This document shows, in pieces, positions 9,249-53,647 of a stretch of DNA of 64,000 nucleotides; position 1 is the stretch's first letter, and the number at the start of each line of letters is the position of its first letter. The stretch is from an uncultured Gammaproteobacteria bacterium (lineage in GTDB: Bacteria > Patescibacteriota > Microgenomatia > UBA12405). The translations under genes and the position numbers were made by a program. The stretch is taken from the NCBI GenBank assembly GCA_964463925.1, contig CAYXDV010000001.1, positions 12,276 through 76,275 of the forward strand, read 5' to 3'. The notes beneath the pieces are model-generated. The model had not been told where the DNA came from, searched no databases, and saw nothing but the letters and a program-made list of their open reading frames with translations.

Positions 9249-10001
9249 TTATTTGACTAGTAGTTTTTTGACGGAATCGAGGACATCTGCAGGAAAGAAA
9301 ACGACAGTATTGCTTTGGTTGCCAAGGTTAGATTCAATAGTTTGTAGAGTACGAAGTGGTAGGGCACCAGATTTGGATAAAATAGTGGCGGCTTCTTGTA
9401 GGTTTTTACTGGCAGTAAGTTCACCTTCGGCGCGAATAATTACCGCTCGGCGGTCGCGTTCAGCTTCGGCTTGTTTGGCCATGACACGTTTGATATCAGC
9501 TGGCAGCTCGATATCTTGCATTTTGATGGCAGTAACATCTACACCCCAAGCGGCAGTTTCGTCATCAACTATAGCTTTGATTTCATCACTGATTTTTTGA
9601 CGCTCAGATAGTAGCTCGTCAAGAGTAACTGAGCCAATAATGTCGCGAAGAGCAGTTTGGGCGTATTGAGTGATGGCGTAATCGTAATCTTGAACTTTTA
9701 GAACAGCATCTTCGGGTTTGATTACCTGATAGTAAACAACAGCGTTAATATTGGCAGGAACATTGTCCTTAGTAATTACTTCCTGTTTGGGAATATCAGA
9801 AGTTGTAATACGAACATCAACTTTGATTACATTTTGGACAATGGGAATTACCAGTTTTAGACCAGGGTTTAAAGTGTAGCTATAAGTGCCCAAAGTGAGG
9901 ACGATTCCACGTTCATATTGATTGACGATGACGATAGATTTGAAGATTAGAAAGAGGCCAAATAAAAAGAAAAGGATGGGGAAAGTAAGTAGAAATTCCA
10001 T
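9249..10001 (-). CDS. SPFH/band-7 family protein (HflK/C-stomatin-like)
   Basis: N-terminal TM plus an SPFH domain (IVNQYERGIVLTLGTYSYTLNPGLKLVIPIVQNVIKVDVRITTSDIPKQEVITKDNV...). The start is placed at the internal Met; the longer ORF-track start would overlap the divergent gene. Confidence 0.8.
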   Translation of the reverse strand: MEFLLTFPILFFLFGLFLIFKSIVIVNQYERGIVLTLGTYSYTLNPGLKLVIPIVQNVIKVDVRITTSDIPKQEVITKDNVPANINAVVYYQVIKPEDAVLKVQDYDYAITQYAQTALRDIIGSVTLDELLSERQKISDEIKAIVDDETAAWGVDVTAIKMQDIELPADIKRVMAKQAEAERDRRAVIIRAEGELTASKNLQEAATILSKSGALPLRTLQTIESNLGNQSNTVVFFPADVLDSVKKLLVK

Positions 10002-10056
10002 ATAGACAAAGTATAGTACTATGCCAGCAATTGTGCAAACAGGTGTAGAATGAAGT

Positions 10057-10776
10057 ATGAAAAAAATAATAGTTTTATTGCTAGTTTTAGGGTTATTGGG
10101 TGGGCTGTGGTATCGAGGAGGCGGTAGTTGGGGGAGCATGACCTGGCTTCCTGCCAAAACAGTGACTGTAATGGGTGAAGCAAAAGGACAAACACAAAAC
10201 CAAATAGCCACCTTTTCAGCTGGGGTAAATGTAATAAAAGAAAATAAAGATGAAGCTACTAAAGAACTAAACCAAAGAATGGATCAGTTGGTTGAAATTG
10301 TTAAAAAATTTGGAATAAAAAGTGAGGATATCAAAACTACCAGTATGAGCTTGTATCAAAATCAAGATCCTTACTGGGACAATGGAATTCAAAAATATAG
10401 ACCAGGAAATTGGAATGCTAGTTCAAATATTGAAATAACTTTAAGAGAAATTAATAGAGCAACTGAGCTGATGAGTCAACTTACCAGTACTGGAGCAAAC
10501 AATGTTTATGGTCCTAACTTTCAAGCTGATAACACTTTGGAATTTGAAAAAGGGCTAATGGAAGAAGCGGTGAAGAATGCAACTGATAAGGCAACTAATT
10601 TAGCAAGGGTTAGTGGGCGACAGCTTGGAAAAATTGTGTCTATTAATGAACTTGGTGCTAACAATAGTGGGGTAATGTATGCAGCTGATATGGGTGGAAG
10701 GGGAGGAGGAGGACCAATGGAACCCGGAAGCCAAACTGTTTCCAAATCGCTTACTGTGGTGTTTGAGTTGAAATAA
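10057..10776 (+). CDS. SIMPL-domain (DUF541) periplasmic/immunogenic-protein family
   Basis: Signal/TM N-terminus; SIMPL-like pattern (ATFSAGVNVIKENKDEATKELNQRMDQLVEIVKKFGIK...DIKTTSMSL); Gly-rich tail. Confidence 0.7.
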   Translation: MKKIIVLLLVLGLLGGLWYRGGGSWGSMTWLPAKTVTVMGEAKGQTQNQIATFSAGVNVIKENKDEATKELNQRMDQLVEIVKKFGIKSEDIKTTSMSLYQNQDPYWDNGIQKYRPGNWNASSNIEITLREINRATELMSQLTSTGANNVYGPNFQADNTLEFEKGLMEEAVKNATDKATNLARVSGRQLGKIVSINELGANNSGVMYAADMGGRGGGGPMEPGSQTVSKSLTVVFELK

Positions 10777-11000
10777 GCCGGATATTTGGTAAAATAAGAA
10801 ATGATAAGAGATGCTGGGGGAAACGTGATTTTGCCACCCGATGCAGTAGTAATTTATGAGCAAAACAGAGCTAATTCTGTAATTGAAAAAAAATTGACTG
10901 ATCCGAGCAAAACAGGGAAAGAGCCACATGTTAAACCCGGAGGAGCACAAGAGGCATTAATCAAGACTAGAGCCGCTCTAAAAAGAATTGGAGGTTAGCT

Positions 11001-11330
11001 TTAAATTTTTTGGCGGGGAGTAAATTTAAAAAACGCCTCAAAAGGATCTTCGCTCTGAACCGGTTGATCGTAATAAACTTCCCAGCCTTGTTTCTCGTAG
11101 CTTGGTTCAACATCTAGCCAACTGTTGTCAAAAATTTCGCGTGGTTTAAAGCCTTGGGTTTCTAGAGCTGCAAGGACGTCTTTTTGTAAAACTACTGCTG
11201 AGTGGCCATCAAATCTAGTTTTAATTTGCTGATTGAATACTTCCAATACTGCATTTGGAATCACTTTTTCTACTGCTTTAACTTGGGCAGGGGAAACGGG
11301 CTTAACCTTTCGTTCAACTGTTCTAGTCAT
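11001..11330 (-). CDS. hypothetical protein, divergent from the NrtR-like regulator
   Basis: 109-aa ORF with no recognised motif. It shares an inverted-repeat-bearing intergenic region with the Nudix regulator gene. Confidence 0.45.
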   Translation of the reverse strand: MTRTVERKVKPVSPAQVKAVEKVIPNAVLEVFNQQIKTRFDGHSAVVLQKDVLAALETQGFKPREIFDNSWLDVEPSYEKQGWEVYYDQPVQSEDPFEAFFKFTPRQKI

Positions 11331-11344
11331 AGGCCTCCTTTGTT

Positions 11345-11428
11345 AACGTATAAATAACGTAAACCATATGTATGATACAACTGAGGTATATTTTGTCAAT
11401 AGCGTAGTTTGTACGTTATTAAATTTGA
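11345..11428. promoter_or_regulatory. putative operator: imperfect inverted repeat with ACGTTATT half-sites
   Basis: AACGTATAAATAACGTAAAC ... GTTTGTACGTTATTAAATTTGATATAC lies between the divergent genes. It is a candidate binding site for the adjacent NrtR-like protein. Confidence 0.4.
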
Positions 11429-11440
11429 TATACTGAGAAG

Positions 11441-12064
11441 ATGATAGACAAGAGGAGTAATTATGCAGTAGCTAGGGTGGCAGTAAATGTTGTGATTTTG
11501 ACTTTTTGGCAGAAAAAGCTGTGGGTGTATGTGACCAATCGCGAAAAGAAGCCATATTCGGGCCTTTTGGAATTGCCAGGTGGACTATTGCAAAATAGAG
11601 AAACTGCCGAAGAAACTTTGAAGCGCAAAATGGATAGTTGGCTTAAAGTTAAAAATGTTTTTTGTGAACAGTTTTATACTTTTACAGAACCACGGCGTGA
11701 TCCTAGAACTAGAACCATATCGGTGGCTTTTGTAGCTATGTTGGACGCTGGCAAAATAGATAACTGGGCCGATTTTTACCAAATAGATAAAATAAAAAAA
11801 TTAGCTTTTGATCATAAAAAAATTGTAGATAAGGCACTGGGTTCAATAAAATCTAATTTAGATGGATGGAGCATACAACACTTTTTTCCCAAAGATTTTC
11901 CAATAAACGATTTGCAAGTTTTGTACGAGTTAATTTCAGGAAAGAAAGTCGATAATCGCAATTTTAGAAAAAGAATGATTAACCTGGGTTTGCTTGAAAA
12001 AGTAGAAAAAGTACAAAAAGGTGTGGCTCATCGTCCTGCCAAATTGTATAGATTTGTAATCTAG
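11441..12064 (+). CDS. Nudix hydrolase fused to a C-terminal winged-helix domain (NrtR-like regulator)
   Basis: Nudix box around GLLELPGGLLQNRETAEETLKRKMDSWL. C-terminus DNRNFRKRMINLGLLEKVEKVQKGVAHRPAKLYRF resembles the NrtR wHTH. Confidence 0.65.
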   Translation: MIDKRSNYAVARVAVNVVILTFWQKKLWVYVTNREKKPYSGLLELPGGLLQNRETAEETLKRKMDSWLKVKNVFCEQFYTFTEPRRDPRTRTISVAFVAMLDAGKIDNWADFYQIDKIKKLAFDHKKIVDKALGSIKSNLDGWSIQHFFPKDFPINDLQVLYELISGKKVDNRNFRKRMINLGLLEKVEKVQKGVAHRPAKLYRFVI

Positions 12065-12081
12065 ATATAATAAAATAAATT

Positions 12082-12687
12082 ATGAAACAACAAGGCCTTT
12101 TGATAGATATCGAGGGTTTAGACGGTAGCGGATCATCGACTCAGGTTGCCTTATTTTCTGAATACTTAAAAATTAGAGGTAAAAGAGTTTTGCAGACCAA
12201 AGAACCTACTGATAACGTGATTGGTGGACTGATTAGAGGTGTTTTGACTGGTTCTTTACCCAAAATCCCATCAGATTGTTTACAGTTTTTGTTTGCCGCT
12301 GATCGATCTCATCACATAGACCGTTTGATTGTACCTGCATTACAACAAAACAGAATTGTGGTAATAGATAGATATTTATGGAGTACAGTGGCATTTGGAG
12401 GGGTAGATTTAGATAGAGAATGGCTTTTGCAAATGCAGAAAAATTTTTTGAAACCTGATTTTAGTTTTTTTATAAAGCTTGATCCAGAGAGATGTGTTGA
12501 AAGAATTACAGATAGTAGATTTGACATAGAGCTTTTTGAAAAGGTCAATAAACTAAAGACAGTATGGAAGAATTATTTATGGCTGGCAGAAAAGTTTCCT
12601 GAGAAAATAGCCTTAATTGATGGTAACCAATCTAAGGAAAAAGTTCTAGCTTCGATAGTTAAAATTTTTGAGGAGAAATTTGGATAA
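12082..12687 (+). CDS. tmk: thymidylate kinase
   Basis: GLLIDIEGLDGSGSSTQ P-loop plus a ...DRY... LID-like region typical of dTMP kinase. Confidence 0.85.
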   Translation: MKQQGLLIDIEGLDGSGSSTQVALFSEYLKIRGKRVLQTKEPTDNVIGGLIRGVLTGSLPKIPSDCLQFLFAADRSHHIDRLIVPALQQNRIVVIDRYLWSTVAFGGVDLDREWLLQMQKNFLKPDFSFFIKLDPERCVERITDSRFDIELFEKVNKLKTVWKNYLWLAEKFPEKIALIDGNQSKEKVLASIVKIFEEKFG

Positions 12688-13894
12688 GAATCTTTTTTCG
12701 GACTTACTTCTTCAAGAAAAAAACAGGCAGGCTACAACTATTCCTCTAATTGCCAGTGAGAATTTTGCCTATCCCGAGGTACAAAAAATAGTAGGTAGTT
12801 GTTTGATGAACAAGTACGCCGAGGGCTATCCGGGCAAGCGTTATTATCAAGGCAATAAAGTTATTGATCAAATCGAGACCCAAACAGTGCAATTGGCAAA
12901 GGATATTTTTGGTTTTGAAGCAGCAAATGTACAGGCTTATTCCGGTAGTCCAGCCAATAGCGCGGTACTAATGGCCTTGGCCGGAGAAGGAGAAAAAATA
13001 GCTGGACTTAAGTTGTCGGCTGGTGGCCATTTGACTCATGGACATCCGAAGGTAACTTTTTCAGGTTCGTTTTATGATAGTGTGCAAATGGAAGTGGACT
13101 CTTGTGGAAGAATTGATAAGAAATTCGCAGAGGAGCTAATTTTGAGGGAAAAACCAAGGGTAATTTTTTTGGGAACAACTAGTTATCCTTACTTTTTGGA
13201 CTTTGAATGGATGGCTGGACTAGCTGAAAAAGTAGGAGCTTATCTGGTTGCTGATATTGCTCATATTTCAGCATTAGTAATTGCTGGTTTACATCCAAAT
13301 CCTATGGCTTGGGCTGATGTGGTGACCATGACTACCCACAAACAACTACGCGGACCAAGGGGAGCAATTATTGGGGTGAGCAAAAAGGGGTTGGCTAAGG
13401 ACCCAGATTTGGCCAAGAAGATTGATCGGGCGGTTTTCCCTGGGTTGCAAGGTGGACCACATATGGAGACTGTTGCCGGAATTGGAGTTTGTTTGCAAAG
13501 GGCAAAAACAGAGGAGTTTAGAGCCTATGCTCAGCAAATAATTGGAAACGCCAAAGCTTTGGAAACTACCTTGAGAAAAAGTGGTTTAGCTGTATTTGGT
13601 ACAGAAAATCATTTGATGGTAGTTGGGGTAGGTGAAGGTAGAGGCAGAATAGCCGCAGAAAAGTTGGAAGAAGCGGGGCTTGTGGTAAATGCCAATAGTA
13701 TTCCTTGGGATAGAGCCAAGCCATTTTCGCCCAGCGGAATAAGACTAGGTACACCAGCAGTGTCTAGTTTAGGAATGAAAGAGCAAGAAATGGAGCTAGT
13801 TGGCCAGTGGGTAGCCGATTTGATTTTAGAAAAAAGAGAACCAAAAGAGATATTGCCTTTGGTGTTGGAGTTGAGGAAAAAGTTTGAAATATAA
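12668..13894 (+). CDS. glyA: serine hydroxymethyltransferase
   Basis: IPLIASENFAYPEV...YAEGYPGKRYYQGNKVID...SAGGHLTHG... and a PLP-lysine region; 408 aa. Confidence 0.95.
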   Translation: MRRNLDKNLFSDLLLQEKNRQATTIPLIASENFAYPEVQKIVGSCLMNKYAEGYPGKRYYQGNKVIDQIETQTVQLAKDIFGFEAANVQAYSGSPANSAVLMALAGEGEKIAGLKLSAGGHLTHGHPKVTFSGSFYDSVQMEVDSCGRIDKKFAEELILREKPRVIFLGTTSYPYFLDFEWMAGLAEKVGAYLVADIAHISALVIAGLHPNPMAWADVVTMTTHKQLRGPRGAIIGVSKKGLAKDPDLAKKIDRAVFPGLQGGPHMETVAGIGVCLQRAKTEEFRAYAQQIIGNAKALETTLRKSGLAVFGTENHLMVVGVGEGRGRIAAEKLEEAGLVVNANSIPWDRAKPFSPSGIRLGTPAVSSLGMKEQEMELVGQWVADLILEKREPKEILPLVLELRKKFEI

Positions 13895-14208
13895 CTTGGC
13901 ATGCAACTAGTTACGCAGCCATTAGAATTTAAGCAAATGATGGATTTGATGGATAGGTAGACTGGATCCAAAAAACAAACAGCACTATATGTTGGCAAAT
14001 ATTTGGAGGGCGCGAATAATTTTGCCCAGAATAAACTTGTTTTGGGAGAATATTTTTTTGTCTTTGGCTCGTGGTTATTGGGGTGGGGAATTAAAGATTT
14101 TTGAAACAAAAGACTATAAACTGAGGGCAGAGCCTATGTTAGATCAGTATTTCAAGCTTTATCATAAATATATCAATACGTATCTTTAAATAGATCAAAG
14201 TAATTAAT

Positions 14209-15186
14209 TTAGTCGGCCAGGGTGTTTTGGATTAGACGGGAGAGGAGTTCCTCAAATTCTATGCCATAGAGGGCCAGGACATTGCCAATGCTACATTCAC
14301 CCTTGGGTCCAAGGCTAGGATTGCTATTGACGTCGATAACATAATGCCGGTTAGAAGCATCGACCCGTAGGTCAAACTTGCCATAGTCATCTAGTTTGAG
14401 TATTTCAAAGCTTTTTTTTAGTTGACTCTTCACGCTTTCGGGTAGTTCGTATTTGGCATAGGTATAAATATCTTCGGTTCCCCAAACGGCGTCGAAAGTA
14501 GCAATTTTATAAGGGCCAGACAACTGTTCATTAAAGACTTTTTCACCAGCATAAACTTTGGTATTCAAACCCTCAACAACATGAACGGCTACTTCGCGGC
14601 CAACAATAAACTCTTCCACTAAAACTGGCATTTTGTAGGTGGTAATTAGATATTTGAGACGTTTTCTTAAGTCCGCTTCGTTGTGAGCGATAGCAGTATC
14701 ATCCATTTCAATAGAGCCATGAACTTCGTTTAATTTGCTAATTAAAGGATAGTCTAAAACTGGGTCGATTTCTTCAGAGGGTTCGGTGACTAGTTGGTAT
14801 TTGGGGGTAGTGATACCGTATTGCCAAAGTAAATTTTTGGTTAAGAATTTGTTGGTATTTAAGGATAAACCGAGCATGCCGGCACCAGTGTAGGGGATTT
14901 GAAGTAGTTCTAAGGTAGCGGGAATGCTGGCACAGAGGGTTTCCTGGCCGTAAACTGAGTCAACCAAATTCAGGACAAAATCTGGTTTGTATTGGTTTAA
15001 ATTTTCAATAATATGACGGTCGCCGGGAAAACATTGGGTGTGAATGCCCATGTTTTGAAGATAGGTAGCGATTTTGGCGGCTCGATCCTTGACCTCGGCT
15101 TCGGATATGAACAATTGTTCGGTAGCAAAATATTCTCGTTTGGCATCGGAGTAAAGAATGGCGATGCGTTTTGGTAGCGGGTTCAT
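14209..15186 (-). CDS. ddl: ATP-grasp D-alanine--D-alanine ligase family
   Basis: Ddl-like length and motifs (…EEFIVGREVAVHVVEG…, …DLRVDASNRHYVIDVNSNPSLG…). Confidence 0.75.
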   Translation of the reverse strand: MNPLPKRIAILYSDAKREYFATEQLFISEAEVKDRAAKIATYLQNMGIHTQCFPGDRHIIENLNQYKPDFVLNLVDSVYGQETLCASIPATLELLQIPYTGAGMLGLSLNTNKFLTKNLLWQYGITTPKYQLVTEPSEEIDPVLDYPLISKLNEVHGSIEMDDTAIAHNEADLRKRLKYLITTYKMPVLVEEFIVGREVAVHVVEGLNTKVYAGEKVFNEQLSGPYKIATFDAVWGTEDIYTYAKYELPESVKSQLKKSFEILKLDDYGKFDLRVDASNRHYVIDVNSNPSLGPKGECSIGNVLALYGIEFEELLSRLIQNTLAD

Positions 15187-15272
15187 GCTAGATTAAGTTT
15201 AAGAAGTAGGGGAGAAAAAGCAAGAGGCAAGACTGACTTGAAAAGTCCCTATTTTGGTACTATCATTTACAC

Positions 15273-15533
15273 ATGCTAAGAAAACAAGTACAGATAAAGA
15301 TTAACATGCCCTTAAAACTCAAAAAGGCAATTGAAAAAAGGGCAAGCAAATATGATTTGACTTTGGCGGCATATGTTAAGTATGCATTAGTTGGTCGTTT
15401 GGAAGAAGAGCTGTCCTTCAAAGCTTCTAAGGCAGTAGAAAAAGCCTATAAAAATATGCTCAACGGTAAGGCTGATACTGTGTCTCTTGACTCTTTAGAA
15501 AAAATGCGGGCATATGTTGATAAAATGAAGTAA
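15273..15533 (+). CDS. ribbon-helix-helix (CopG-like) antitoxin
   Basis: MPLKLKKAIEKRASKYDLTLAAYVKYALVGRLEEEL is an RHH pattern. Its stop overlaps the ATG of a downstream RelE-like reading frame (TAATG). Confidence 0.6.
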   Translation: MLRKQVQIKINMPLKLKKAIEKRASKYDLTLAAYVKYALVGRLEEELSFKASKAVEKAYKNMLNGKADTVSLDSLEKMRAYVDKMK

Positions 15534-15804
15534 TGGAGTTAGTTTTTGACAAAAAGGTTTTGTCGAAGTTGAAGAAGATACAAAGAAAAGACAGAGCACT
15601 ATATGATTAGTAAACAAGCACCTAGAATTATTCTTGATTGACGAGAATCATCCATCATTAAGAAAACATAAATTAAGAGGTGATTTACAAGACTGCTGGA
15701 GTATTTCTGTGAATATGGGAATTAGAATGGTTTATTACAAATTTGACAATAAAGTTTTCTTTATAAAAATTGGTACACACGATAAAGTTTATGAAGCGAA
15801 TTAA
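15533..15804 (+). pseudogene. RelE/ParE-family toxin gene disrupted by a frameshift
   Basis: Frame 2 from 15533 gives MELVFDKKVLSKLKKIQRKDRALYD, then a stop at 15608. Frame 1 from about 15607 gives LVNKHLELFLIDENHPSLRKHKLRGDLQDCWSISVNMGIRMVYYKFDNKVFFIKIGTHDKVYEAN*. Together they reconstruct a RelE-like toxin with one indel near 15605-15610. Confidence 0.6.
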
Positions 15805-15814
15805 AAGTGGGTCT

Positions 15815-18433
15815 CTAAGATTTTTGACGAAGAAAAATGGGGATACTAATAAAAGTTAATGGAATGAAGGCAAGACCAATAAATTCCAGAATTTGTGGCC
15901 AGAAGAAGAAATAAATGGTTGGGCAATTCTGTTGACAATTTTGTAATTCTGAAGGCAACAGCCAGCCATTGGCCCAGTTGTTCACCAATAGGTGATTAGA
16001 TAAGAAAATGGGTTTTTTACCATCAAAATAAAAAGCTAGCCAGGAGGGGGAAAAGGACTGAGGAAGGACTAAAGTATTGTTGCTAGCTGAGTTTTTACTA
16101 AATTTGTAAAAGAAAGTACCTAACTTGTTTGAAGCGTAGTAGGTTCGTTGGGTCTTGGCTAAATTTGGTGGAATGTAAGTTTGGTTGGGGTTTGTGAAAA
16201 GTTTTATATTTTTGATTTGATTGGTGGTAGTTTTGCCATCGAAACTGGGACTATTAAAAAGAATAGTAAGTCCTGTATAGAAATCTTCGCTTTCTATAGC
16301 TGGAATATTTATTGAATATGGTGTCCATTGTTTTAGATTTGGTAGCTTTATATTGAAGAATTTGTACTTTTTATTATTATCAAAGGCTGAGATGGTCAGA
16401 GGGTGTCCTGATAAGTTAGACGCATAAAAATTTAGAGTTAGTTCTTGGGTAAAGTTAGCAGAAGGGTAGTAGAAGCCTTTTAGATTGTTAGTGGCAATTG
16501 ATTTTAGTTCAAAAAAATCAGGTTTTTCTGTTGGGAACAATTCTTCTAGCTGATAATTGGGGGATTGTATAAAAGCTTCCCTATCAGAAAATTGATTAAT
16601 ATTTGGAGAATTTGTATTTGGATAAACCGAGTAATCACCCGAATTTTCAAAGGTAAAATCCCTGTTATTAAATAATTGCTGGGCGGATATTTGGGTATTG
16701 GTAGAAAAAATCTGGTTGTTGCTATTTGTTTTGTACAAGAAAATTTGGTTATTGAAGTTTTTTTCTAGAGTCAGAAAAGGGCTGTTTTCTAGTAATTGGT
16801 TAATGTAATATTTTTGTTTACTATAGATTGGCTCATCTGGATAAAAAACATTTTTATCATATAGAATATAGTCTATGTTATATTTTTGGACTATGTTTTG
16901 TAGCAAAACTGGACTATTTGTCTCAATGGCATATTTTAATTGCCAATAGTATGATTCGTTGTAAAGATTCCAAACGTCGAAAGCTCTATCTAAAATAGAT
17001 TGGCTCAGCCCGTACCAAAGGAAACCAGAGCCGCGCATTCCAAAGTCATATCTTGTCCAGCCGTAAAAAGATCCCTGTGGAAGGTTGGCTATTCTCAGAT
17101 CTGGTTTTTGGTTAAGATAGGTAATAACTTTGAAGTAGGTGTCGGGGATTTTTATTTTTAGATTGGGATAAAAAAAATTTCCTTTAAAAATTGGCTGGTT
17201 TAATAAAAGATTAAGTGTTAAAAAAAGAAAAGAAATAGTAGCAAGAACGGAGCCTGAAATTTTTTTCCAGTTGTAGAAACTTAACAAGAAATGTCCAATT
17301 AAGAGGGAGTAGATTAGGCTAAGCAAGGGGGCAAATTTGGTGAAAGGCGAACGAAAGACCTGATCAATTAGGCCTGATTGCCTCAGAAATTGGTTTATTT
17401 GAGAGAAAACTGGTATTTGGCTGCCGAGGGCTATGCAAAGTAAAAGGCTAGATAAAATTGTGAAAGTTTGTAAACTATTTTTAATTTTAGGCAGTGTCAC
17501 TAAGACTAGGCCCAAGAATGCACAGAAACTAAAAAAATATTGCAGGAGATTCATGCTGGGTGAGTTCAGAAAAGAGATCCAAGGTGACATAATGTTTCCT
17601 TCTACGTCCGTCAAATTAAAGTAATATCCCTTAAGCGACAATAAATCCCAAAAATGCCCAAAATAGTCATTACGCATGGCGGTTTCTTGATTAGCCATAA
17701 GATTGCCCATAGCAAACCTGGGGTTGTAAGATTGGGTCGAAAAGAAATATAAAAAAGGTAATAACCAAAATAGATTAAGAAAGAGAATTATCCCTAATTG
17801 TTTAAGGGTAGTTGAGGCTTTTTTATAAGTTGACAAAATAAGGCAACCCAAAATAGATAAATAAACCAGGAAAACTGTGGGGACATAGAAGCTAGGAATG
17901 GCCAAAAGATTGACAATAGTTAGTTTAAAAAAGTTTTTAAGAGTAGGCTGATTAGCGCTTTGAAGGAAGTATAGTACCAACCACGGCAGAGTGCCCCAAA
18001 AAATTGAAAAAGGTTCAAAAGGGGCCCAAAAATTTTGGACGGTGGCAAAATTTAGGAGATAAAAGCTGGCAACTAAGACTGATGGTAGATTTTTGTGCGA
18101 ATACTGTTTGAATAAAAAATATATACCATAGGTTCCTAGAAAAAGACTAAAAAAATGCCAAAAATAACGTATCTGGTTAGCGGGCAATATTAGATTTAAC
18201 AGTAAAGTTAAGAGCTGTCTTATCAGATCAGTTGCATGACCCATCCCGCCGACTAATCCTAGTCCTTGGTATTCCTGCCACACAGCCGAAAGACTCCTGG
18301 CTAAATTTAATTTTAGGTTTAGTTCTGGCATTAAATTGTCCCAGCCAGATAGCCAAGTTCCGTTTGTAAAATTAGCCAAAAATACTGCCAATAATAATAG
18401 AAACAGAAAGATAGGTGCAAACCATTTAGACAT
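15815..18433 (-). CDS. large polytopic membrane protein, possible GT-C-type (YfhO/ArnT-like) glycosyltransferase
   Basis: 872 aa with about 15 predicted TM helices in the N-terminal two thirds and a C-terminal extracytoplasmic domain. It overlaps the upstream GT2 gene by 8 nt, which suggests an operon. Confidence 0.45.
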   Translation of the reverse strand: MSKWFAPIFLFLLLLAVFLANFTNGTWLSGWDNLMPELNLKLNLARSLSAVWQEYQGLGLVGGMGHATDLIRQLLTLLLNLILPANQIRYFWHFFSLFLGTYGIYFLFKQYSHKNLPSVLVASFYLLNFATVQNFWAPFEPFSIFWGTLPWLVLYFLQSANQPTLKNFFKLTIVNLLAIPSFYVPTVFLVYLSILGCLILSTYKKASTTLKQLGIILFLNLFWLLPFLYFFSTQSYNPRFAMGNLMANQETAMRNDYFGHFWDLLSLKGYYFNLTDVEGNIMSPWISFLNSPSMNLLQYFFSFCAFLGLVLVTLPKIKNSLQTFTILSSLLLCIALGSQIPVFSQINQFLRQSGLIDQVFRSPFTKFAPLLSLIYSLLIGHFLLSFYNWKKISGSVLATISFLFLTLNLLLNQPIFKGNFFYPNLKIKIPDTYFKVITYLNQKPDLRIANLPQGSFYGWTRYDFGMRGSGFLWYGLSQSILDRAFDVWNLYNESYYWQLKYAIETNSPVLLQNIVQKYNIDYILYDKNVFYPDEPIYSKQKYYINQLLENSPFLTLEKNFNNQIFLYKTNSNNQIFSTNTQISAQQLFNNRDFTFENSGDYSVYPNTNSPNINQFSDREAFIQSPNYQLEELFPTEKPDFFELKSIATNNLKGFYYPSANFTQELTLNFYASNLSGHPLTISAFDNNKKYKFFNIKLPNLKQWTPYSINIPAIESEDFYTGLTILFNSPSFDGKTTTNQIKNIKLFTNPNQTYIPPNLAKTQRTYYASNKLGTFFYKFSKNSASNNTLVLPQSFSPSWLAFYFDGKKPIFLSNHLLVNNWANGWLLPSELQNCQQNCPTIYFFFWPQILEFIGLAFIPLTFISIPIFLRQKS

Positions 18434-19292
18434 TGATTGATTCTAGCGCAAAAGAGCTTGTTTTTTTCAAATTTCTTATACTGTACCAAAGGTTACTAAT
18501 CATAGCTTCTGGAAGAAAAGTAACTACTATAATTTGCAAAAGGTTTAGAAAGATCGCAGTTGGCGAAGGTTTTGAACCCAATTGCAGTGCATTTAGTCTG
18601 CTTTGAAAGGTTAGCCAAAAGGTTTTTTTGGGATGGGAATGGGAAAGGCTGGTGGGTAAAATTCGATAAAATAGAAGTGTTTGATTGAGATTAGAAAGAT
18701 TTCCTAAGCGCGATAAACGGAAAAGAAGATCAACTTCTTCAGCTGAGGATCTATTGGGTTGGTACCAAAGAAATTTTTTTGGCAAAAGGAGTGTGTTTAT
18801 CATCATACTGGGTTGCTGAATTGGGATGGCCCAAAAAAGCATCTTGGCCAGTTTTACAGGATTACTCGGAAAGTTTTTTTGGCCAATTAGCTTATTATTT
18901 TGGTCGATTAACTGGCATTGGCCACCAAGGGCAATTGTCTGGGGATTTGTTTTAAAGTATGCCAGTTGAAGTTGAAGACGTGTAGGGATAGAAATATCGT
19001 CGGCGTCCATACGCGCAATGAATTTGCCACGGCATTTGGATAAGGCGATATTGGAAGTTAGGCTTACGCCAAGATTTATTGGATTACGAAAAGCCTTGAT
19101 ACGTTTGTCTTTCTTAGCATACTTTTGAATTATGGTCCAAGAATGATCAGTGGAATGATCATCTACGATGATGAATTCAAAATTACTATAAGTTTGGAAT
19201 AAAATAGATTCAATTGACTGAGTTAGAAACTCGGCGGCGTTGAAGACTGGCATATAGACTGAAAGAATTGGTTTTTTGTCCGAATATTTCAT
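18426..19292 (-). CDS. family 2 glycosyltransferase
   Basis: LSVYMPVFNAAEFLTQSIESILFQTYSNFEFIIVDDHSTD...ARMDADDIS is a GT2 DxD architecture. Confidence 0.8.
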   Translation of the reverse strand: MKYSDKKPILSVYMPVFNAAEFLTQSIESILFQTYSNFEFIIVDDHSTDHSWTIIQKYAKKDKRIKAFRNPINLGVSLTSNIALSKCRGKFIARMDADDISIPTRLQLQLAYFKTNPQTIALGGQCQLIDQNNKLIGQKNFPSNPVKLAKMLFWAIPIQQPSMMINTLLLPKKFLWYQPNRSSAEEVDLLFRLSRLGNLSNLNQTLLFYRILPTSLSHSHPKKTFWLTFQSRLNALQLGSKPSPTAIFLNLLQIIVVTFLPEAMISNLWYSIRNLKKTSSFALESINV

Positions 19293-19395
19293 ATCTTGAT
19301 TTATCGTTTTCGGCTTCTTTTTGCCTCATCAGTACGAGAATTGGTTTACTCGTAAAACGATATTCCACACACAACAAAGAAAGGAAATCACCAGA

Positions 19396-19445
19396 AGACA
19401 CGCAGAGAGGCAAGCCAGGAAGGCTTGGGGGTCCTCTCTGCGTGT
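19396..19445. repeat. long perfect hairpin (14-bp stem, nested inner stem) just downstream of the lipoprotein gene
   Basis: GACACGCAGAGAGG-CAAGCC-AGGAA-GGCTTG-GGGGT-CCTCTCTGCGTGTC. It lies in a local GC-rich segment. Confidence 0.5.
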
Positions 19446-19465
19446 CAAGCGGTGGTCATGTGACA

Positions 19466-20251
19466 CTACTTGCAGGACTTGGCCGCCCGTTGCTCTTCGA
19501 GCCAAGGCGCAACGACGCCGGTTGTGACTTTGCCATCAGAAGGTGCGTTCTTTAGCATGCAGCTGGAAAATTTAGTGCCATCCGACAAAACAATGCCGAC
19601 GCCGATGACAGTGTCACCTTTCTTGAAGTTCAAAGTCTTGCCGTCGCCTGTAGCTTGGCGTTCTGAATTGACTTGCGCGGCAGGCTTGGCAGGTGATGTG
19701 GCTGTAGGCTGTTCGGCTTGCTGGGTTGAACCGGTTGGTGGATACAAGTGAGCATGTGCCCAACTGTATTTAACAGCTTCACCAACCCTAAAGTCGTATT
19801 CGTCCTTCAGCCATTCGCTCTTAACCACACTAACGAAACCGTCCTTCACTGTGACACTGAAGTCGCTTGTGTATGTCTTATAGACACCGCCTGCAACGTT
19901 ATCCACTGTGAAGCCGCCAACAACCGCAGCGGTTCCGGGGATCAACTTGATCCTCCAGGTCTTCTGTGGTGCGTCGGTTCCACTTTCCGGATCCCATTTA
20001 CCCGTTTCCAGGTACATGGAAGGATGTGCCACGTATGGTTGCGGCTGCAGGTCATACAGTTGCCCGTTTTCGGCACGGGTGGCGGCGGGGATAGGCGCTG
20101 GTGCGGCGGTTGTCGTAGTCGTGATGACGCTGGTCGCTGAGGCGGCCGGCGTGTCGCTACGAGTTGCGGTGGCGCCAGAAGCGCCGCCGCAACCGGCTAG
20201 GAGCAGTATTGCTCCGGCCGCCATCACAGATAGAAATATTTTGTTTTTCAT
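19466..20251 (-). CDS. lipoprotein of unknown function, compositionally foreign (high GC)
   Basis: Signal peptide with lipobox (...ILLLAGCGG); Thr/Ala-rich linker; GC about 55-60% against a 38-40% background. RBS aaggag sits 8 nt upstream of the ATG. Confidence 0.7.
   Translation of the reverse strand: MKNKIFLSVMAAGAILLLAGCGGASGATATRSDTPAASATSVITTTTTAAPAPIPAATRAENGQLYDLQPQPYVAHPSMYLETGKWDPESGTDAPQKTWRIKLIPGTAAVVGGFTVDNVAGGVYKTYTSDFSVTVKDGFVSVVKSEWLKDEYDFRVGEAVKYSWAHAHLYPPTGSTQQAEQPTATSPAKPAAQVNSERQATGDGKTLNFKKGDTVIGVGIVLSDGTKFSSCMLKNAPSDGKVTTGVVAPWLEEQRAAKSCK
20221..20251. repeat. left copy of a 31-bp imperfect inverted repeat (covers the first 10 codons of the lipoprotein gene)
   Basis: The reverse complement ATGAAAAACAAAATATTTCTATCTGTGATGG matches AAGAAAAACAAAATATTTCTGTCAGTGATGG at 21011-21041 at 27 of 31 positions, in the same codon phase. 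Confidence 0.55.
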
Positions 20252-20285
20252 TTTTTCTCCTTTTTTTGTTTTTTGTTTTGATTTT

Positions 20286-20339
20286 GGTATTAGAACCCAG
20301 CTATCCCCATACTAATGGGAAGAATTGGGTTCTAATACC
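20286..20339. promoter_or_regulatory. 14-bp perfect inverted repeat (GGTATTAGAACCCA/TGGGTTCTAATACC) upstream of the lipoprotein gene
   Basis: Spacer of 26 nt. Further palindromes lie nearby: TAACACgcaatGTGTTA about 20406-20422, GTGGCAAtTTGCCAC 20443-20457 and ATCTGTaaaaACAGAT about 20518-20533. Confidence 0.4.
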
Positions 20340-20659
20340 TCAAAAACTTAGAAAAGAAGAATTATTGTTGTGTGTGGAATGTAAAGGAACTTCTGGGTCA
20401 CTTGGTTAACACGCAATGTGTTAGAAAGTAAAAACCAGAGGAGTGGCAATTTGCCACCCAAAAACTAACTTAAATTAGCTTTTGGCTGACAAAATGTTTT
20501 TTACTTAAAGGTGCGAATCTGTAAAAACAGATTATGGGTAAGTATAGCAATTAAAGCCTAAATTGTCAAGTTATAGGACTTAAGAAATTTATATGTAGGT
20601 AGCTTGGGTAAAATTTAATGTCGTGAAAAACATGATTCGTTTGGTTCAATTAGAAACTC

Positions 20660-21091
20660 TTGTTGATATACTCAATTATGGCTAAGGACTTTAAGGTTAA
20701 AAGGCGAGTATGGTTGACATATGATTTATGGAGGAAAGATGGGATTTATTGCCCTGCATTGAAATCTAGAGTAAGAGTATCGTTACTTGGCTGGAGACAT
20801 ATTACTGGAGCTACTGGCCACAAAAAACGTTCTTTTGGAGATGTATACAGACGTTTAAAACTATTGCCCTATGCAAAAGAGATTTTAGAAGAGTCGACCA
20901 ACATACAAGATATAAGTATCAGAAATAGTCGTACTTTTTATGCATTTGAGGCTATGAAATTAATTGGTAGTGTATGGATTAAAGTACGAGTTGTATTGAT
21001 CGAAGATGCTAAGAAAAACAAAATATTTCTGTCAGTGATGGATCGGAAAAAGAAAAACGGAGCACCTCACGCTTCGGTTGTTAAACGTTAG
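20660..21091 (+). CDS. hypothetical protein; its C-terminal 10 codons (KNKIFLSVMD) duplicate the lipoprotein signal-peptide start
   Basis: 143-aa ORF with a basic N-terminal half and no recognised family. The 3' end contains the right copy of the inverted repeat (21011-21041). Confidence 0.45.
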   Translation: MLIYSIMAKDFKVKRRVWLTYDLWRKDGIYCPALKSRVRVSLLGWRHITGATGHKKRSFGDVYRRLKLLPYAKEILEESTNIQDISIRNSRTFYAFEAMKLIGSVWIKVRVVLIEDAKKNKIFLSVMDRKKKNGAPHASVVKR

Positions 21092-21496
21092 CGTCATGGA
21101 GTGTAAAAACACTCTTGCTCCGATGCGTTATCCTAGCAAATAAAGTAGATATGGTCAAGTAAAATATCTTATTTGACAAATAACGGAAAATAGGGTTTGA
21201 TTAAGTGATGTTGGGAATTACGTCAAATTCTCAGCTAAGATTCCGGTAGGGACCGGGATGACATACAAACTGACCTGCGCGAGAAAGTAGTGATCCGATG
21301 CGCAAGGATCAATCTGAAGGCAACGAAAGTATATGACGCGACCTTCAGCTCCTTACAGGTTGGCCCACATATAAGTTGTAATTTAAGATTACTTGTAGTA
21401 ATTTTTTAAATTACAATAGTTCTTTTTGAAAATAAAATAGACTACGAACCTCGGGGTGCGATCCACTTTCGGGGTAGGAAAAACTCTATTTTGTTT

Positions 21497-21520
21497 TGCC
21501 CCCGCCACGGCGGGGGATTT
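21497..21520 (+). terminator. GC hairpin plus T-run, plus-strand orientation
   Basis: CCCCCGCC-acg-GCGGGGG followed by ATTTTATTT. Confidence 0.4.
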
Positions 21521-21975
21521 TATTTAGATAGAAAATTTACTACTTCTGAGGGACTAAGAACTTTGATTTGTCTTAACCTTAGGCTAAAGAATGGATCCAT
21601 ATCTAGTGATTTATCTGGGGGAAAACGGGCAAAAATTGGCTTAGATTGAGCCAGGGCAAACCCAATTTCCAAACAAGTAGATGGACCAATATAGCCAGAG
21701 GGATTTTCCAAATATAGAAAGTTGCTTTGTCGCAGAGCACTTAAAAATCGATCTTCTATTTGTTTTGGATTTAGACCAATCTCATTAGGAAGTGGTCGAA
21801 AAACATCAGGGTTATAGTCTGGACTAAGCCTTAGCACTCGTGGCTTTGCCAGCCAGCCAAGTGCAGGTTCTAGAACTGTTACTCCAAGATGTTTATATTC
21901 TATAATTGTTTGGTCAATCTCTGGTTTGTATTTGGAAAAACTGCCAGAGATACAGCAGAATAACTGTTCAAACAT
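21520..21975 (-). CDS. nucleoside 2-deoxyribosyltransferase-like family protein (second copy in the window)
   Basis: ...NPSGYIGPSTCLEIGFALAQSKPIFARF resembles the NDT/DNPH1 motif (x-G-x-x-E-x-G-x-A-x-x-x-x-K-P). Confidence 0.5.
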   Translation of the reverse strand: MFEQLFCCISGSFSKYKPEIDQTIIEYKHLGVTVLEPALGWLAKPRVLRLSPDYNPDVFRPLPNEIGLNPKQIEDRFLSALRQSNFLYLENPSGYIGPSTCLEIGFALAQSKPIFARFPPDKSLDMDPFFSLRLRQIKVLSPSEVVNFLSK

Positions 21976-22447
21976 GTTTTTGGGAGAAGAATTTTGACTT
22001 TAGGATAAAGTAAACTAGATAGAAAATTAGGCAGCCAAAGGAGTTGGCAAGCAAATCCCAGGAAGTGTCGGTAATGTTTAATTTTTTTACCAAATGAAAT
22101 TGGACTAAGAATAGCTCAAAAAGCTCGTTTAAAGTCCCAAGAGAGCTAGTAAAAGCAAAGAAGGTTAAAAATTCCTGGAAAAGATTTAGTTTATGGTTTT
22201 GTGATTTTATAAATGACAAAGTCAGTAGACAGGAGAAAAAACCACCGCCAACTACATGAGTGGTAAAGGAGGTATTTTGACCGTTTATCAAAGGAGAGGG
22301 TAAATACCAGGAGAGGAAATAGCTAAAAGCTGCCAGATAAAGATAAATATTTTTACGGTACTTTTGACTAGCTATTAAATTGGCCAAAACTGGAAAGAGC
22401 AAAATCGTTAGGATGGGAATTAGAAAGGGAAAAAGTAGATAAAACAT
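21968..22447 (-). CDS. hypothetical integral membrane protein (VanZ-like size)
   Basis: 159 aa with 4-5 hydrophobic segments. It overlaps the downstream gene by 8 nt. Confidence 0.5.
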   Translation of the reverse strand: MFYLLFPFLIPILTILLFPVLANLIASQKYRKNIYLYLAAFSYFLSWYLPSPLINGQNTSFTTHVVGGGFFSCLLTLSFIKSQNHKLNLFQEFLTFFAFTSSLGTLNELFELFLVQFHLVKKLNITDTSWDLLANSFGCLIFYLVYFILKSKFFSQKHV

Positions 22448-22448
22448 G

Positions 22449-22519
22449 CAGGCCTGCTAGGATTCGAACCTAGAAGAGCGGTTTTGGAGACCGCCATGAT
22501 ACCATTTCATCACAGACCT
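22449..22519 (-). tRNA. tRNA-Trp (anticodon CCA)
   Basis: Minus strand AGGTCTG...GGCGGT-CT-CCA-AA-ACCGCT...GGTTCGAATCC...CAGGCCT-G folds as a cloverleaf with anticodon CCA and a TpsiC loop. Confidence 0.85.
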
Positions 22520-22529
22520 AGGAGAGATG

Positions 22530-22602
22530 TGGACCTGAGGGGACTTGAACCCCTGACCTTCCCCATGCCATGGGGACGCGCTACCAACTACGCTACAGGC
22601 CC
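22530..22602 (-). tRNA. tRNA-Ala (anticodon GGC)
   Basis: GGGCCTGTAGCGTAGTTGGTAGCGCG-TCCCC-ATGGCAT-GGGGA...GGTTCAAGTCC...CAGGTCC-A, with the G3:U70 Ala identity pair present. Confidence 0.85.
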
Positions 22603-53558: not shown

Positions 53559-53609
53559 AGCAGATTCAAATACACTCAATTCTGATTTTTTGGAAAAAGT
53601 TTTAAAGAT

Positions 53610-53647
53610 GCAGAGTAGTAGAGGGGGTTTAACCCATTCTACTCTGC
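53610..53647. terminator. hairpin between convergent operons
   Basis: GCAGAGTAG-(20 nt with nested GGGGG/CCC)-CTACTCTGC, with T-runs on the minus-strand side. Confidence 0.4.

Follow-up and report, generated by a model that had tools for sequence, protein, structure and literature searches.

Is the GC-rich lipoprotein gene of this locus a foreign cassette, horizontally acquired and grafted onto a native 5' end? The gene lies in a 64,000-nt stretch of contig CAYXDV010000001.1 (assembly GCA_964463925.1; the window hereafter). A sequence-only reading proposed this origin, based on a 261-aa lipoprotein gene of about 55-60% GC in a 38-40% GC genome, the strong hairpins on both sides and the AT-rich, host-like signal-peptide codons. 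The observation itself is confirmed. The interpretation, however, is only partly supported, and a recent one-off import is largely not. The gene is probably the first of an envelope operon shared by many ultra-small bacteria (Patescibacteria). Homologues at the same position in six other genome contigs (L009-L014) are all GC-rich, and a previously unnoticed hammerhead ribozyme motif separates the gene from the downstream enzyme genes. The features of the locus are collected in Table 1.

Table 1. Features of the lipoprotein locus and its neighbors, in window coordinates.
Position	Strand	Feature	Observation
20541..20569	-	Promoter-like site (TTGACA, 17 nt, TATACT, with a TG before the second hexamer), about 290 nt upstream of the start codon	11 of 12 consensus matches; a consensus match only
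20441..20459	-	Terminator-like hairpin inside the long leader	The leader 20252-20540 folds at -88.6 kcal/mol, z -8.9
20365..20380	-	5' arm of the perfect 16-nt inverted repeat (AUUCCACACACAACAA on the mRNA strand)	Only these two copies in the window; 0 of 200 shuffles of the flanks reach 16 nt; pairs with the 3' arm in both the MFE and the centroid fold of the 1036-nt RNA
20286..20339	-	5' leader hairpin (14 bp perfect plus an inner stem), 25 nt downstream of the 5' arm	25 nt at 84%, z -5.6; comparable strong hairpins lie just after the 5' arm in L004 and L014
20255..20262	-	Shine-Dalgarno sequence AAGGAGAA	An identical 18-nt RBS-plus-start also occurs at 56544-56561
19466..20251	-	Gene for the 261-aa lipoprotein (MKNKIFLSVMAAGAILLLAGC...): signal peptide with LAGC lipobox, Thr/Ala/Pro linker, domains D1 and D2 of an uncharacterised family	329 family representatives at E<=1e-3; AF2 model (pLDDT 70) with two beta-rich domains, no significant Foldseek match in the PDB
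20221..20249	-	AT-rich patch: last base of the ATG and codons 2-10 (KNKIFLSVM), copied in inverted orientation from the neighboring LPD3 gene	27/29 nt identical to 21013-21041, 0 matches expected by chance
21013..21041	+	Source of the patch: codons for the conserved KNKIFLSVM motif near the 3' end of ORF 20660-21091 (a stand-alone LPD3 domain protein)	
19397..19446	-	GC-rich 3' hairpin, 19 nt after the stop codon	14-bp perfect outer stem, 5-nt bulge, 6-bp inner stem, 5-nt loop; -49.7 kcal/mol for the 121-nt context, z -6.8; the 3' UTR 19378-19465 is 56% GC
19362..19377	-	3' arm of the 16-nt inverted repeat, abutting the ribozyme motif and sharing nucleotide 19362 with stem III	Same geometry in L014: arm 3447-3461, predicted cleavage after 3467
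19302..19362	-	Type III hammerhead ribozyme motif: stem III 19362-19356 with 19308-19302; H17 is U at 19355; stem I 19354-19349 with 19338-19333; core CUGAUGA 19332-19326; stem II GGC/GCC; GAAA 19311-19308	Cleavage predicted between 19355 and 19354; Rfam RF00008 score 28.9 bits (E 0.0017 in 2.3 kb)
18426..19292	-	GT2 glycosyltransferase	AUG 9 nt after the ribozyme motif, no obvious Shine-Dalgarno sequence
15815..18433	-	872-aa polytopic membrane protein with a conserved GWDNLxPE motif	Always downstream of GT2 in the relatives

The composition of the gene is clearly anomalous. Its GC content is 0.552 (GC1 0.56, GC2 0.52, GC3 0.57), against a window mean of 0.389 and a native-gene GC3 of 0.336, and its whole codon usage differs. 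It is the strongest GC3 outlier among the ORFs of at least 100 aa in the window, and 200-nt windows across 19300-20300 reach 0.50-0.655. Amino-acid content alone explains only about half of the excess (expected GC 0.477, expected GC3 0.35). Expression-linked codon bias was rejected as well, as the ribosomal protein genes of the window have the lowest GC3 (0.24-0.35).

Some details of the sequence-only reading need correction. The 3' hairpin, given there as a perfect 50-nt structure at 19396-19445, is shifted by one nucleotide and is not perfect over 50 nt, although it is still very stable. The upstream 14-bp inverted repeat was confirmed as described. Only the first 10 codons are AT-rich (23% GC, counted from the sequence): from codon 11 on (AAGAILLLAGC), the hydrophobic region and the lipobox are already GC-rich and align with the signal or anchor region of family members. 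The graft junction lies inside the signal peptide and not at the start of the mature domain. The extreme 5' end is indeed native sequence: it copies the KKNKIFLSVM motif of the LPD3 gene and, since this motif is conserved across the LPD3 family, the lipoprotein copy is the derived one. Neither hairpin arm recurs convincingly elsewhere in the window, each giving only one extra match with two mismatches, at 1600 and 54390; the hairpins are not insertion-site repeats. The bracketing 16-nt inverted repeat, which encloses the gene and both hairpins, the inverted 29-nt copy of codons 1-10 and the hammerhead motif had all been missed.

The encoded protein has the features of a bacterial lipoprotein: a positively charged n-region, a hydrophobic h-region and a lipobox. 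The lipobox is conserved in L011 (LLLAGC), while other members have a plain membrane anchor instead. Searches of Pfam, NCBIfam, PHROGs and PDB sequences with the lipoprotein, the 872-aa protein and their profiles returned nothing beyond signal-peptide noise and generic GT2 models. Only three relatives of the lipoprotein were found by a word-indexed search; a later search of this type with an 18-sequence profile was swamped by low-complexity linker words and also returned only three proteins. Cluster look-ups named only one further member, from Saccharimonadales, and the 872-aa protein has no close relative among the GTDB species representatives.

Homologues in L009-L014 lie directly upstream, on the same strand, of the same GT2 and large membrane protein. 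All are GC-rich islands, with a gene GC of 0.51-0.65 against 0.27-0.41 in native reference genes, and a GC3 of 0.49-0.87 against 0.19-0.40. The pairwise identities of the island protein, GT2 and the membrane protein run in parallel: 92/89/91% for L014-L009, 56/58/41% for L011-L013, 52/49/39% for L010-L012 and 33-41/41-47/29-43% for the window against the others. Between L009 and L014, dS is 0.34-0.58 in the island genes and 0.48-0.97 in the flanks. The finding of GC-rich orthologs with congruent relationships, which had been named in advance as evidence against the foreign-cassette view, is thus obtained. No member was found outside Patescibacteria-type contexts, nor in viral contigs. Among 185,579 species representatives, the only contig not labelled Patescibacteria (L009, "Gammaproteobacteria") has Levyibacteriota-like flanks about 90% identical to L014.

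A type III hammerhead motif lies in the spacer between the lipoprotein gene and GT2. The core is complete (CUGAUGA, GAAA, A15.1-U16.1, G10.1-C11.1, H17 = U), and stems of 7, 6 and 3 bp are present. The motif lies in the same spacer in seven loci: it is found at this position in the related loci L004, L005 and L006, as well as in L009, L013 and L014, with a truncated hit in L002, a short high-GC contig. The core columns are invariant in all seven loci except N7 (U or C in L009); the G10.1-C11.1 pair is present in 7/7 and U16.1-A15.1 in 6/7, and H17 is C, U or A in the other loci. A covariance model built from these loci found no second copy in 220 kb and recovered the truncated L002 hit, which was not used to build it. 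In the alignment, 87% of cells pair, against 32-50% when the partners are slid, 14 of 21 pairs change on both sides, and 0 of 500 shuffles reach the observed score; the alignment was fitted to the structure, however, which inflates the pair counts somewhat. The scores remain below the Rfam gathering threshold of 48.5 bits, also in L006 (38.5), L014 (31.5) and L009 (26.5), probably because of the short stem II or long stem II insertions. In the window, stem II is only 3 bp long and the cleavage triplet UUU is not the commonest, and self-cleavage is a prediction from sequence alone. A search for a second ribozyme upstream of the islands, with Rfam E-value scans and with our own model, found none. 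L010, L011, L012 and another related locus, L007, have GC-rich slot genes but no hammerhead core in the spacer; the ribozyme therefore cannot explain the GC richness.

Perfect 15-16-nt inverted repeats of unrelated sequence bracket the island in the window, L014 and L004, and in each case 0 of 200 shuffles reach the observed length. Such repeats are significant in only 3 of 9 loci, and they contain no G-U pairs, which fits DNA-level repeats at least as well as RNA stems. In the window and in L014, the 3' arm ends 6-7 nt before the predicted cleavage site (7 nt in the window), and in the predicted fold the arm-arm duplex closes the RNA of the window into a panhandle. Strong hairpins of different sequence but similar placement flank the island genes in the relatives as well.

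The explanation that we favor, with moderate confidence, is that of a ribozyme-processed, hairpin-capped mRNA module for a variable surface protein, forming the first cistron of an operon conserved in Microgenomates-type Patescibacteria. In the direction of transcription, this operon comprises a long structured leader, the GC-rich gene for a lipid-anchored surface protein, the GC-rich 3' hairpin, the hammerhead, GT2 and the large membrane protein. In this view, the ribozyme would cut the polycistronic RNA and release the lipoprotein mRNA as a GC-rich molecule with a stem-loop near each end, its 3' end held in the panhandle and carrying a 2',3'-cyclic phosphate. The enzyme mRNA would start with a 5'-OH followed by stems I and II. 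The likely effect is to uncouple an abundant, long-lived surface-protein mRNA from the low-level enzyme message. The synteny, the composition, the ribozyme motif with its covariation, the repeats and the predicted folds are established by the present analysis, whereas self-cleavage, in vivo in particular, mRNA stabilization and any role of the protein as partner or substrate of the glycosylation genes are inferred. The only strong promoter-like site is 150 nt upstream of the 5' arm, and the 5' end of this putative mRNA is itself an assumption. GC richness is a persistent, lineage-wide property of this cistron and not a mark of recent import into this genome, but selection for mRNA stability is an unlikely sole cause of a GC3 of 0.87 in L014/L009. 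The slot is nevertheless recombinationally plastic: domains are shuffled, a mature domain has been swapped in relatives, and in the window the first 10 codons were rebuilt from the LPD3 gene. Moreover, L004, L006 and L007 hold non-homologous but also GC-elevated genes in the same slot, which fits recurrent replacement as well as vertical descent.

This plasticity makes a recombination hot spot a possible, though less likely, alternative, which can coexist with the favored explanation and would supply the missing cause of the GC anomaly: the segment between the conserved N-terminal anchor/linker and the stop codon/ribozyme would be repeatedly replaced by recombination among Patescibacteria, and GC richness would be produced by GC-biased gene conversion or be needed by the recombination mechanism, as is argued for the Borrelia vls locus. 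L004 and L006 are 88% identical through GT2 and the membrane gene and 82% identical over the RBS plus the first ~60 codons, but the ~600 nt coding for the mature domain are unrelated; in this pair, the mature-domain region really has been exchanged between conserved flanks, and to this extent the sequence-only reading is right. Domain order and number vary within the family (D1-D2, D2-D1, split genes, D2 repeated three times), and the codon 1-10 patch points the same way. The GC elevation extends into the non-coding 3' UTRs and an intra-island spacer (0.45-0.64), which fits a regional process rather than codon selection, and all ten loci examined show excess GC3, none of them looking ameliorated. 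On the contrary, no silent cassettes or partial copies were found in the 64-kb window by a profile search of six-frame ORFs, blastn and tblastn, GC skew on the coding strand is near zero, no G-quadruplex motifs were found, and the GC-biased conversion effects reported so far in bacteria are much smaller than +0.2 to +0.5 in GC3. The co-varying identities of island and flanks also indicate that replacement is not frequent enough to scramble the phylogeny. A more speculative and rather doubtful extension, which would be of considerable interest if true, regards the slot as a dedicated exchange site for surface-protein modules in Patescibacteria, its GC richness (GC3 up to 0.87 in genomes at 0.38) being generated or required by the exchange mechanism, through GC-biased conversion or a composition-dependent recombination step. 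This would be a free-living or episymbiont counterpart of the vls principle, with the ribozyme and terminal pairing defining the expressed RNA unit. That the cut, end-paired mRNA is ligated into a circular coding RNA is very unlikely.

Recent acquisition from a high-GC donor is improbable. In its favor are the composition of the gene and of the 3' hairpin, the few relatives in the word-indexed search and the fact that the two closest proteins are encoded on short contigs of 58-62% GC, L001 and L002. However, L002 ends in the L014-type spacer and the truncated hammerhead, and L001 drops to 0.44-0.52 GC over its last 300 nt; they are therefore islands too and not donor genomes. No integrase or transposase is annotated within about 10 kb, no such Pfam family appears in the 13-kb annotated context, the nearest tRNAs are about 2.1 kb away, and no target-site duplication is seen next to the inverted repeats. 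An integron attC, MITE or IS reading of the flanking repeats was likewise rejected, as the repeat sequences are not shared between loci or repeated in the window, no target-site duplication is seen and the position is syntenic. A single ancient import with slow amelioration was rejected by inference, since the lineages share only 41-58% GT2 identity and synonymous sites are hence saturated. Polarizing synonymous changes in L014/L009 with L002 gave 16 GC-to-AT against 3 AT-to-GC changes, about the ratio that noise alone predicts with this saturated outgroup (62% nt identity, GC3 0.82). An invertible element is also unlikely, in which the 16-nt repeats would serve as crossover sites to flip the whole gene and switch lipoprotein expression or read-through into GT2, or the 29-nt repeat would mediate an in-frame intragenic inversion. 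Repeats that differ between lineages but are perfect within each are what recombination-maintained sites look like, GC skew is near zero inside the segment while the flanks are strongly positive, as expected for DNA that spends time in both orientations, and the 29-nt repeat keeps the reading frame in both genes. But no recombinase is annotated in the 13 kb around the gene, every assembly has the gene co-oriented with GT2, the chimeric LPD3-lipoprotein protein predicted from the 29-nt inversion is absent from 15 billion proteins, and six of nine loci lack the 16-nt type of repeat. The constant 6-7-nt spacing between 3' arm and cleavage site in two distant lineages rather points to an RNA-level role. 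A diversity-generating retroelement target is not supported: the gene shares no repeat longer than 29 nt with the rest of the window, and no reverse transcriptase appears in the annotated 13 kb. Finally, an assembly chimera or contamination, suggested only by the sharp compositional boundaries, is extremely unlikely. An independent Logan assembly (L003) is colinear with the window across 9466-22557, judged from three exact 100-200-nt anchors, and shows the same junctions; seven further genome or metagenome contigs from different studies show the same arrangement, and the reading frame, RBS and repeats run across the composition boundary.

The locus shows that a GC island need not mean recent gene transfer. 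Here, a gene has stayed 15-30 GC points above its genome across deeply diverged lineages of ultra-small bacteria, so that some force must oppose the AT bias of these genomes. It also places a hammerhead motif in a conserved chromosomal operon with a clear putative job, cutting a surface-protein mRNA away from the enzyme genes and leaving its 3' end in a panhandle, a concrete case for bacterial hammerheads, whose biological roles remain unclear (PMC3088659). In addition, it defines an uncharacterised, variable surface-protein family and its linked glycosyltransferase module in Patescibacteria, for which cell-surface contacts with hosts are central and poorly understood.

Several known systems resemble parts of this locus. 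A horizontally acquired genomic islet or phage "moron", a self-contained gene with its own terminator, is likewise a single gene of atypical GC with hairpins on both sides and, here, a surface lipoprotein product, but the present gene is found at the same locus in distant relatives, without mobility genes, a donor or a known empty site. Invertons, DNA segments flipped between short inverted repeats, share the perfect 15-16-nt inverted repeats, about 1-2.5 kb apart, around a surface-protein gene; here, no recombinase and no second orientation were seen, and the repeat is positioned relative to a predicted RNA cleavage site. In extracytoplasmic glycosylation modules (CsbB/YfhO, GtrB/GtrC, Ppm1/Pmt), a GT2 polyprenyl-phosphate-sugar synthase is combined with a large GT-C membrane transferase; here too, a GT2 gene is followed by a large polytopic membrane protein, and the upstream protein has a Thr/Pro/Ala-rich linker of the kind that is O-glycosylated in actinobacterial lipoproteins. 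The membrane protein of the locus matches no Pfam, NCBIfam or PDB family, however, and GT2 hits only generic EpsE/TuaG-like models below their cut-offs, and glycosylation of the lipoprotein is pure inference.

The best-documented parallel found for the GC richness is the Borrelia vlsE/vls antigenic-variation locus (PMC11499132), where the force is also unexplained. There, a surface lipoprotein locus at ~49% GC in a ~28.6% GC genome stays GC-rich across species, with inverted repeats whose presence is conserved but whose sequence and position are not, and a mirrored copy of the 5' end nearby; the authors infer selection to maintain high GC. In contrast to vls, no array of silent cassettes was found in the window, GC skew is not high, the mirrored 5' piece is borrowed from an unrelated LPD3 gene, the proteins are unrelated, and the hosts are environmental episymbiont-type bacteria and not a vertebrate pathogen. 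Bacterial and phage hammerheads that flank individual genes in polycistronic transcripts (Perreault et al. 2011, PMC3088659) share the canonical type III core, the three stems and the position between two co-oriented genes, where cleavage would turn one transcript into gene-length mRNAs, as shown in vitro for clustered bacterial hammerheads. No paper in the literature searched combines hammerhead ribozymes with Patescibacteria. Compared to the published cases, the motif described here scores below the Rfam gathering threshold, is a single ribozyme motif rather than a flanking pair, lies in a conserved chromosomal envelope operon rather than a prophage, and is coupled to a long-range 5'/3' pairing that ends 6-7 nt before the predicted cleavage site.

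The protein encoded by the GC-rich open reading frame is a 261-aa lipoprotein that begins with MKNKIFLSVMAAGAILLLAGC and possesses a lipobox, a Thr/Ala/Pro-rich linker and two beta-rich regions. The GC content of the gene is 0.552 (GC3 0.573), compared with 0.389 for the window and a GC3 of 0.336 for twelve native genes, making it the strongest GC3 outlier among the ORFs of the window. Strong hairpins are present on both sides of the gene, and both fold far better than shuffled sequence (z -6.8 for the 3' hairpin and z -5.6 for the upstream hairpin). The observation made by the sequence-only reading, a GC-rich lipoprotein gene between two hairpins in a GC-poor genome, is thus confirmed. The upstream hairpin is as described there; the 3' hairpin, on the contrary, is not a perfect 50-mer, but consists of a 14-bp perfect stem, a 5-nt bulge and a 6-bp inner stem. 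Only the first 10 codons are AT-rich. An independent Logan assembly is colinear with the window across the region.

Positions of the features in the window and in the related loci L004, L006 and L014
Feature	Position	Strand	Remark
Lipoprotein gene	19466-20251	minus	261 aa
AT-rich codons 1-10 of the lipoprotein gene	20221-20249		27/29 nt identical, in inverted orientation, to 21013-21041
Origin of the copied codons	21013-21041		inside ORF 20660-21091
LPD3-domain ORF	20660-21091	plus	PF18798 in its homologues
3' hairpin	19397-19446
Upstream hairpin	20286-20339
Inverted repeat	19362-19377 / 20365-20380		perfect, 16 nt; brackets the gene and both hairpins
Type III hammerhead motif	19302-19362	minus	H17 is U at 19355
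Ribosome-binding site plus start codon	20247-20264		lipoprotein gene; 18 nt
Identical ribosome-binding site plus start codon	56544-56561		ORF 55880-56548; 18 nt
Inverted match, GT2 codons to LPD3 codons	19104-19120 and 21006-21022		17 nt, 94%
Stretch with no ORF of 50 aa or more	21092-21519		430 nt
GC-rich stem-loop ending this stretch	around 21499-21517		GCCCCGCC...GGCGGGGG
Second GC-rich block	53600-56600		holds minus-strand ORFs 55880-56548 (222 aa, GC3 0.50, no Pfam hit), an SPFH/Band_7 gene at 55061-55864, and the overlapping ORFs 54215-54742 and 53901-54542
Inverted repeat in L014	952-966 / 3447-3461		perfect
Inverted repeat in L004	4384-4398 / 5348-5362		perfect
Unrelated mature-domain segments	L004 4736-5347 versus L006 762-1359		~600 nt each

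Two further repeats were not part of the sequence-only reading. The perfect inverted repeat around the gene has only these two copies in the 64 kb, and none of 200 shuffles of the flanks reaches 16 nt. The second repeat links the first 10 codons of the lipoprotein gene to the neighboring ORF, and no match of this kind is expected by chance. This ORF encodes a stand-alone LPD3-domain protein, belonging to a family with 121 homologues in Microgenomates-type bacteria (Daviesbacteria, Roizmanbacteria, Shapirobacteria and Woesebacteria). The copied peptide (KKNKIFLSVMDKK) is one of the conserved motifs of this family; hence, the start of the lipoprotein was copied from the neighbor and not the reverse. 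Elsewhere, the LPD3 gene sits in unrelated contexts, next to toxin-antitoxin, Fic and AAA genes, so its adjacency here is incidental. From codon 11 onwards, the GC-rich sequence aligns with the signal or anchor region of family members, and the junction is therefore located inside the signal peptide. A shorter inverted match connects the GT2 codons for YAKKDK to the LPD3 codons just before the copied patch, probably a coincidence of lysine-rich low-complexity sequence. Between the LPD3 gene and a nucleoside-deoxyribosyltransferase-like gene lies the stretch without ORFs, for which no convincing Rfam match was obtained.

A word-indexed search identified only the protein itself and two relatives with 43-44% identity, both encoded on short contigs (L001 and L002) of 58-62% GC. 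A full HMMER scan of 1.84 billion representatives recovered 329 family members, built from two domains (D1 and D2) in varying order and number. None of them matches Pfam or the sequence of any solved structure, and the only named members are from Patescibacteria. Scanning one genome per species yielded six loci (L009-L014). In all six, the homologue is a GC-rich island, with a gene GC of 0.51-0.65 and a GC3 of 0.49-0.87, in contigs whose native genes have a GC3 of 0.19-0.40. In all six, it lies immediately upstream, on the same strand, of the same GT2 glycosyltransferase and a membrane protein of 758-1148 aa with the GWDNLxPE motif, which is exactly the arrangement in the window. The contig of L009 (CAZMSF010000043.1) is binned as an uncultured Gammaproteobacteria MAG, but its GT2, membrane protein and island genes are about 90% identical in protein to those of a Levyibacteriota locus (L014), and it is probably a mis-binned Patescibacteria contig. 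The two short high-GC contigs are islands too: L002 ends in the same spacer as L014, and L001 falls to 0.44-0.52 GC over its last 300 nt. No relatives were found in viral contigs.

The pairwise identities of the island protein, GT2 and the membrane protein run in parallel: 92/89/91% for L014-L009, 56/58/41% for L011-L013, 52/49/39% for L010-L012, and 33-41/41-47/29-43% for the window against the others. Between L009 and L014, the synonymous divergence in the island genes (0.34-0.58) is comparable to that in the flanks (0.48-0.97). The gene has therefore traveled with its operon. As these lineages are so diverged that synonymous sites are saturated, a single old import should, by inference, have ameliorated completely. 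Every locus nevertheless keeps an excess GC3 of +0.13 to +0.49, the outcome that the sequence-only reading had named as a refutation of a foreign cassette. Amino-acid composition accounts for about half of the excess GC of the lipoprotein gene (expected GC 0.477), and synonymous choice and GC-rich 3' UTRs account for the rest. Ribosomal protein genes have a low GC3, so translational selection of the usual kind is not the cause. A second compositionally atypical block is present in the window, with a GC of 0.45-0.555 and a GC skew near zero or negative, compared with +0.2 to +0.35 in its flanks; this could be a genuine foreign island or another persistently GC-rich module. An identical ribosome-binding site plus start codon (AAAAAGGAGAAAAAATGA on the coding strand) heads both the lipoprotein gene and the 222-aa ORF of this block, although it may simply be the strong consensus start region of this genome.

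The slot occupied by the gene is nevertheless plastic. Three loci found through the membrane protein (L004, L006 and L007) carry non-homologous, but also GC-elevated, secreted or anchored proteins at the same place. L004 and L006 are 88% identical through GT2 and beyond, and 82% identical over the ribosome-binding site and the first ~60 codons, while the mature-domain coding segments behind the shared anchor and linker are unrelated. The downstream identity starts exactly at the sequence AAATAATTCTACGG, which in L004 also occurs inverted upstream of the leader. This is a clean replacement between conserved flanks and represents the part of the proposed graft of a foreign mature domain onto a native 5' end that holds true.

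A permissive Rfam scan flagged a type III hammerhead motif downstream of the lipoprotein gene at 28.9 bits, below the gathering score of 48.5. Read by hand, the motif is complete: stem III is UAUCGUU/AACGAUA, H17 is U, stem I is UACGAG/CUCGUA, the core is CUGAUGA, stem II is GGC/GCC and GAAA follows. A stem-aware scan found the same motif in the island-to-GT2 spacer of L004, L005, L006, L009 and L013, and Rfam reports sub-threshold hits in L006, L014 and L009. A covariance model built from the seven sequences finds no other copy in 220 kb, but does pick up a truncated hit at the end of L002, which was not used to build it. On the model alignment, which was fitted to the structure, 87% of cells pair (32-50% when the partners are slid), 14 of 21 pairs change on both sides and none of 500 shuffles reaches the observed score. 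The core is lacking in L010, L011, L012 and L007. In four of the five independent lineages, the ribozyme motif ends 2-15 nt before the next start codon; in the window, this gap is 9 nt, without a Shine-Dalgarno sequence, whereas in L013 the next start lies about 260 nt downstream.

Perfect 15-16-nt inverted repeats of unrelated sequence also bracket the island in L014 and L004, and in each, none of 200 shuffles reaches the observed length. Six other loci have none. In the window and in L014, the 3' arm ends 7 and 6 nt, respectively, before the predicted cleavage site. Folding of the 1036-nt RNA from the 5' arm to the cleavage site predicts the arm-arm duplex in both the MFE and the centroid structure, with both hairpins intact. 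Strong hairpins follow the 5' arm and the stop codon in the relatives as well. The hairpins and the repeat are therefore read as parts of an mRNA architecture, in which a ribozyme-made 3' end would be tucked into a panhandle.

The protein is an uncharacterized two-domain surface protein, lipid-anchored as judged from its sequence, and its AF2 model (pLDDT 70) has no significant Foldseek match in the PDB. The downstream genes encode a generic GT2 and a large polytopic membrane protein without a family match. This pairing resembles GT2 plus GT-C extracytoplasmic glycosylation modules, and the Thr/Pro/Ala linker resembles O-glycosylated linkers, but a role in glycosylation is inferred by analogy only.

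The interpretation given by the sequence-only reading, a horizontally acquired cassette, is only partly supported: recent horizontal transfer is largely refuted, apart from the rebuilt 5' end and the cassette-like plasticity of the slot. A DNA-level role of the repeats, namely inversion, is not excluded, as they contain no G-U pairs and the GC skew inside the segment is near zero. In 1-kb windows, the skew is strongly positive (+0.1 to +0.4) across almost the whole window, whichever strand the genes are on; it collapses only in the two GC-rich blocks (19-20 kb and 53-57 kb) and dips at 27-28 kb. However, no recombinase was found among the annotated genes around the locus, no second orientation in the assemblies examined and no predicted chimeric product in the protein collection. 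The data are best explained by a conserved, ribozyme-bounded, hairpin-capped expression module for a variable surface protein. Differential mRNA processing and stability is proposed, with moderate confidence, as the function of the hairpins, the repeat and the ribozyme. For the composition, recombination-linked GC bias is the leading candidate, but only a tentative one, and it is compatible with the first proposal; the persistent GC richness remains unexplained. The composition, the conserved gene order, the repeats and the ribozyme motif are direct observations, whereas self-cleavage, the effect on the mRNA and any glycosylation of the protein are inferred.

Hammerheads that flank single genes and cut polycistronic RNAs are known, mainly in prophages (PMC3088659), but no paper linking hammerheads to Patescibacteria was found in the literature searched. 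No silent cassettes were detected in the window and the gene shows no GC skew, so the locus is not a member of the vls kind. The closest parallel for the composition is nevertheless the Borrelia vls locus, a lipoprotein system at about 49% GC in a genome of about 28.6% GC, with inverted repeats of inconsistent sequence and a mirrored 5' end, for which selection to keep the GC content high is inferred by its authors (PMC11499132).
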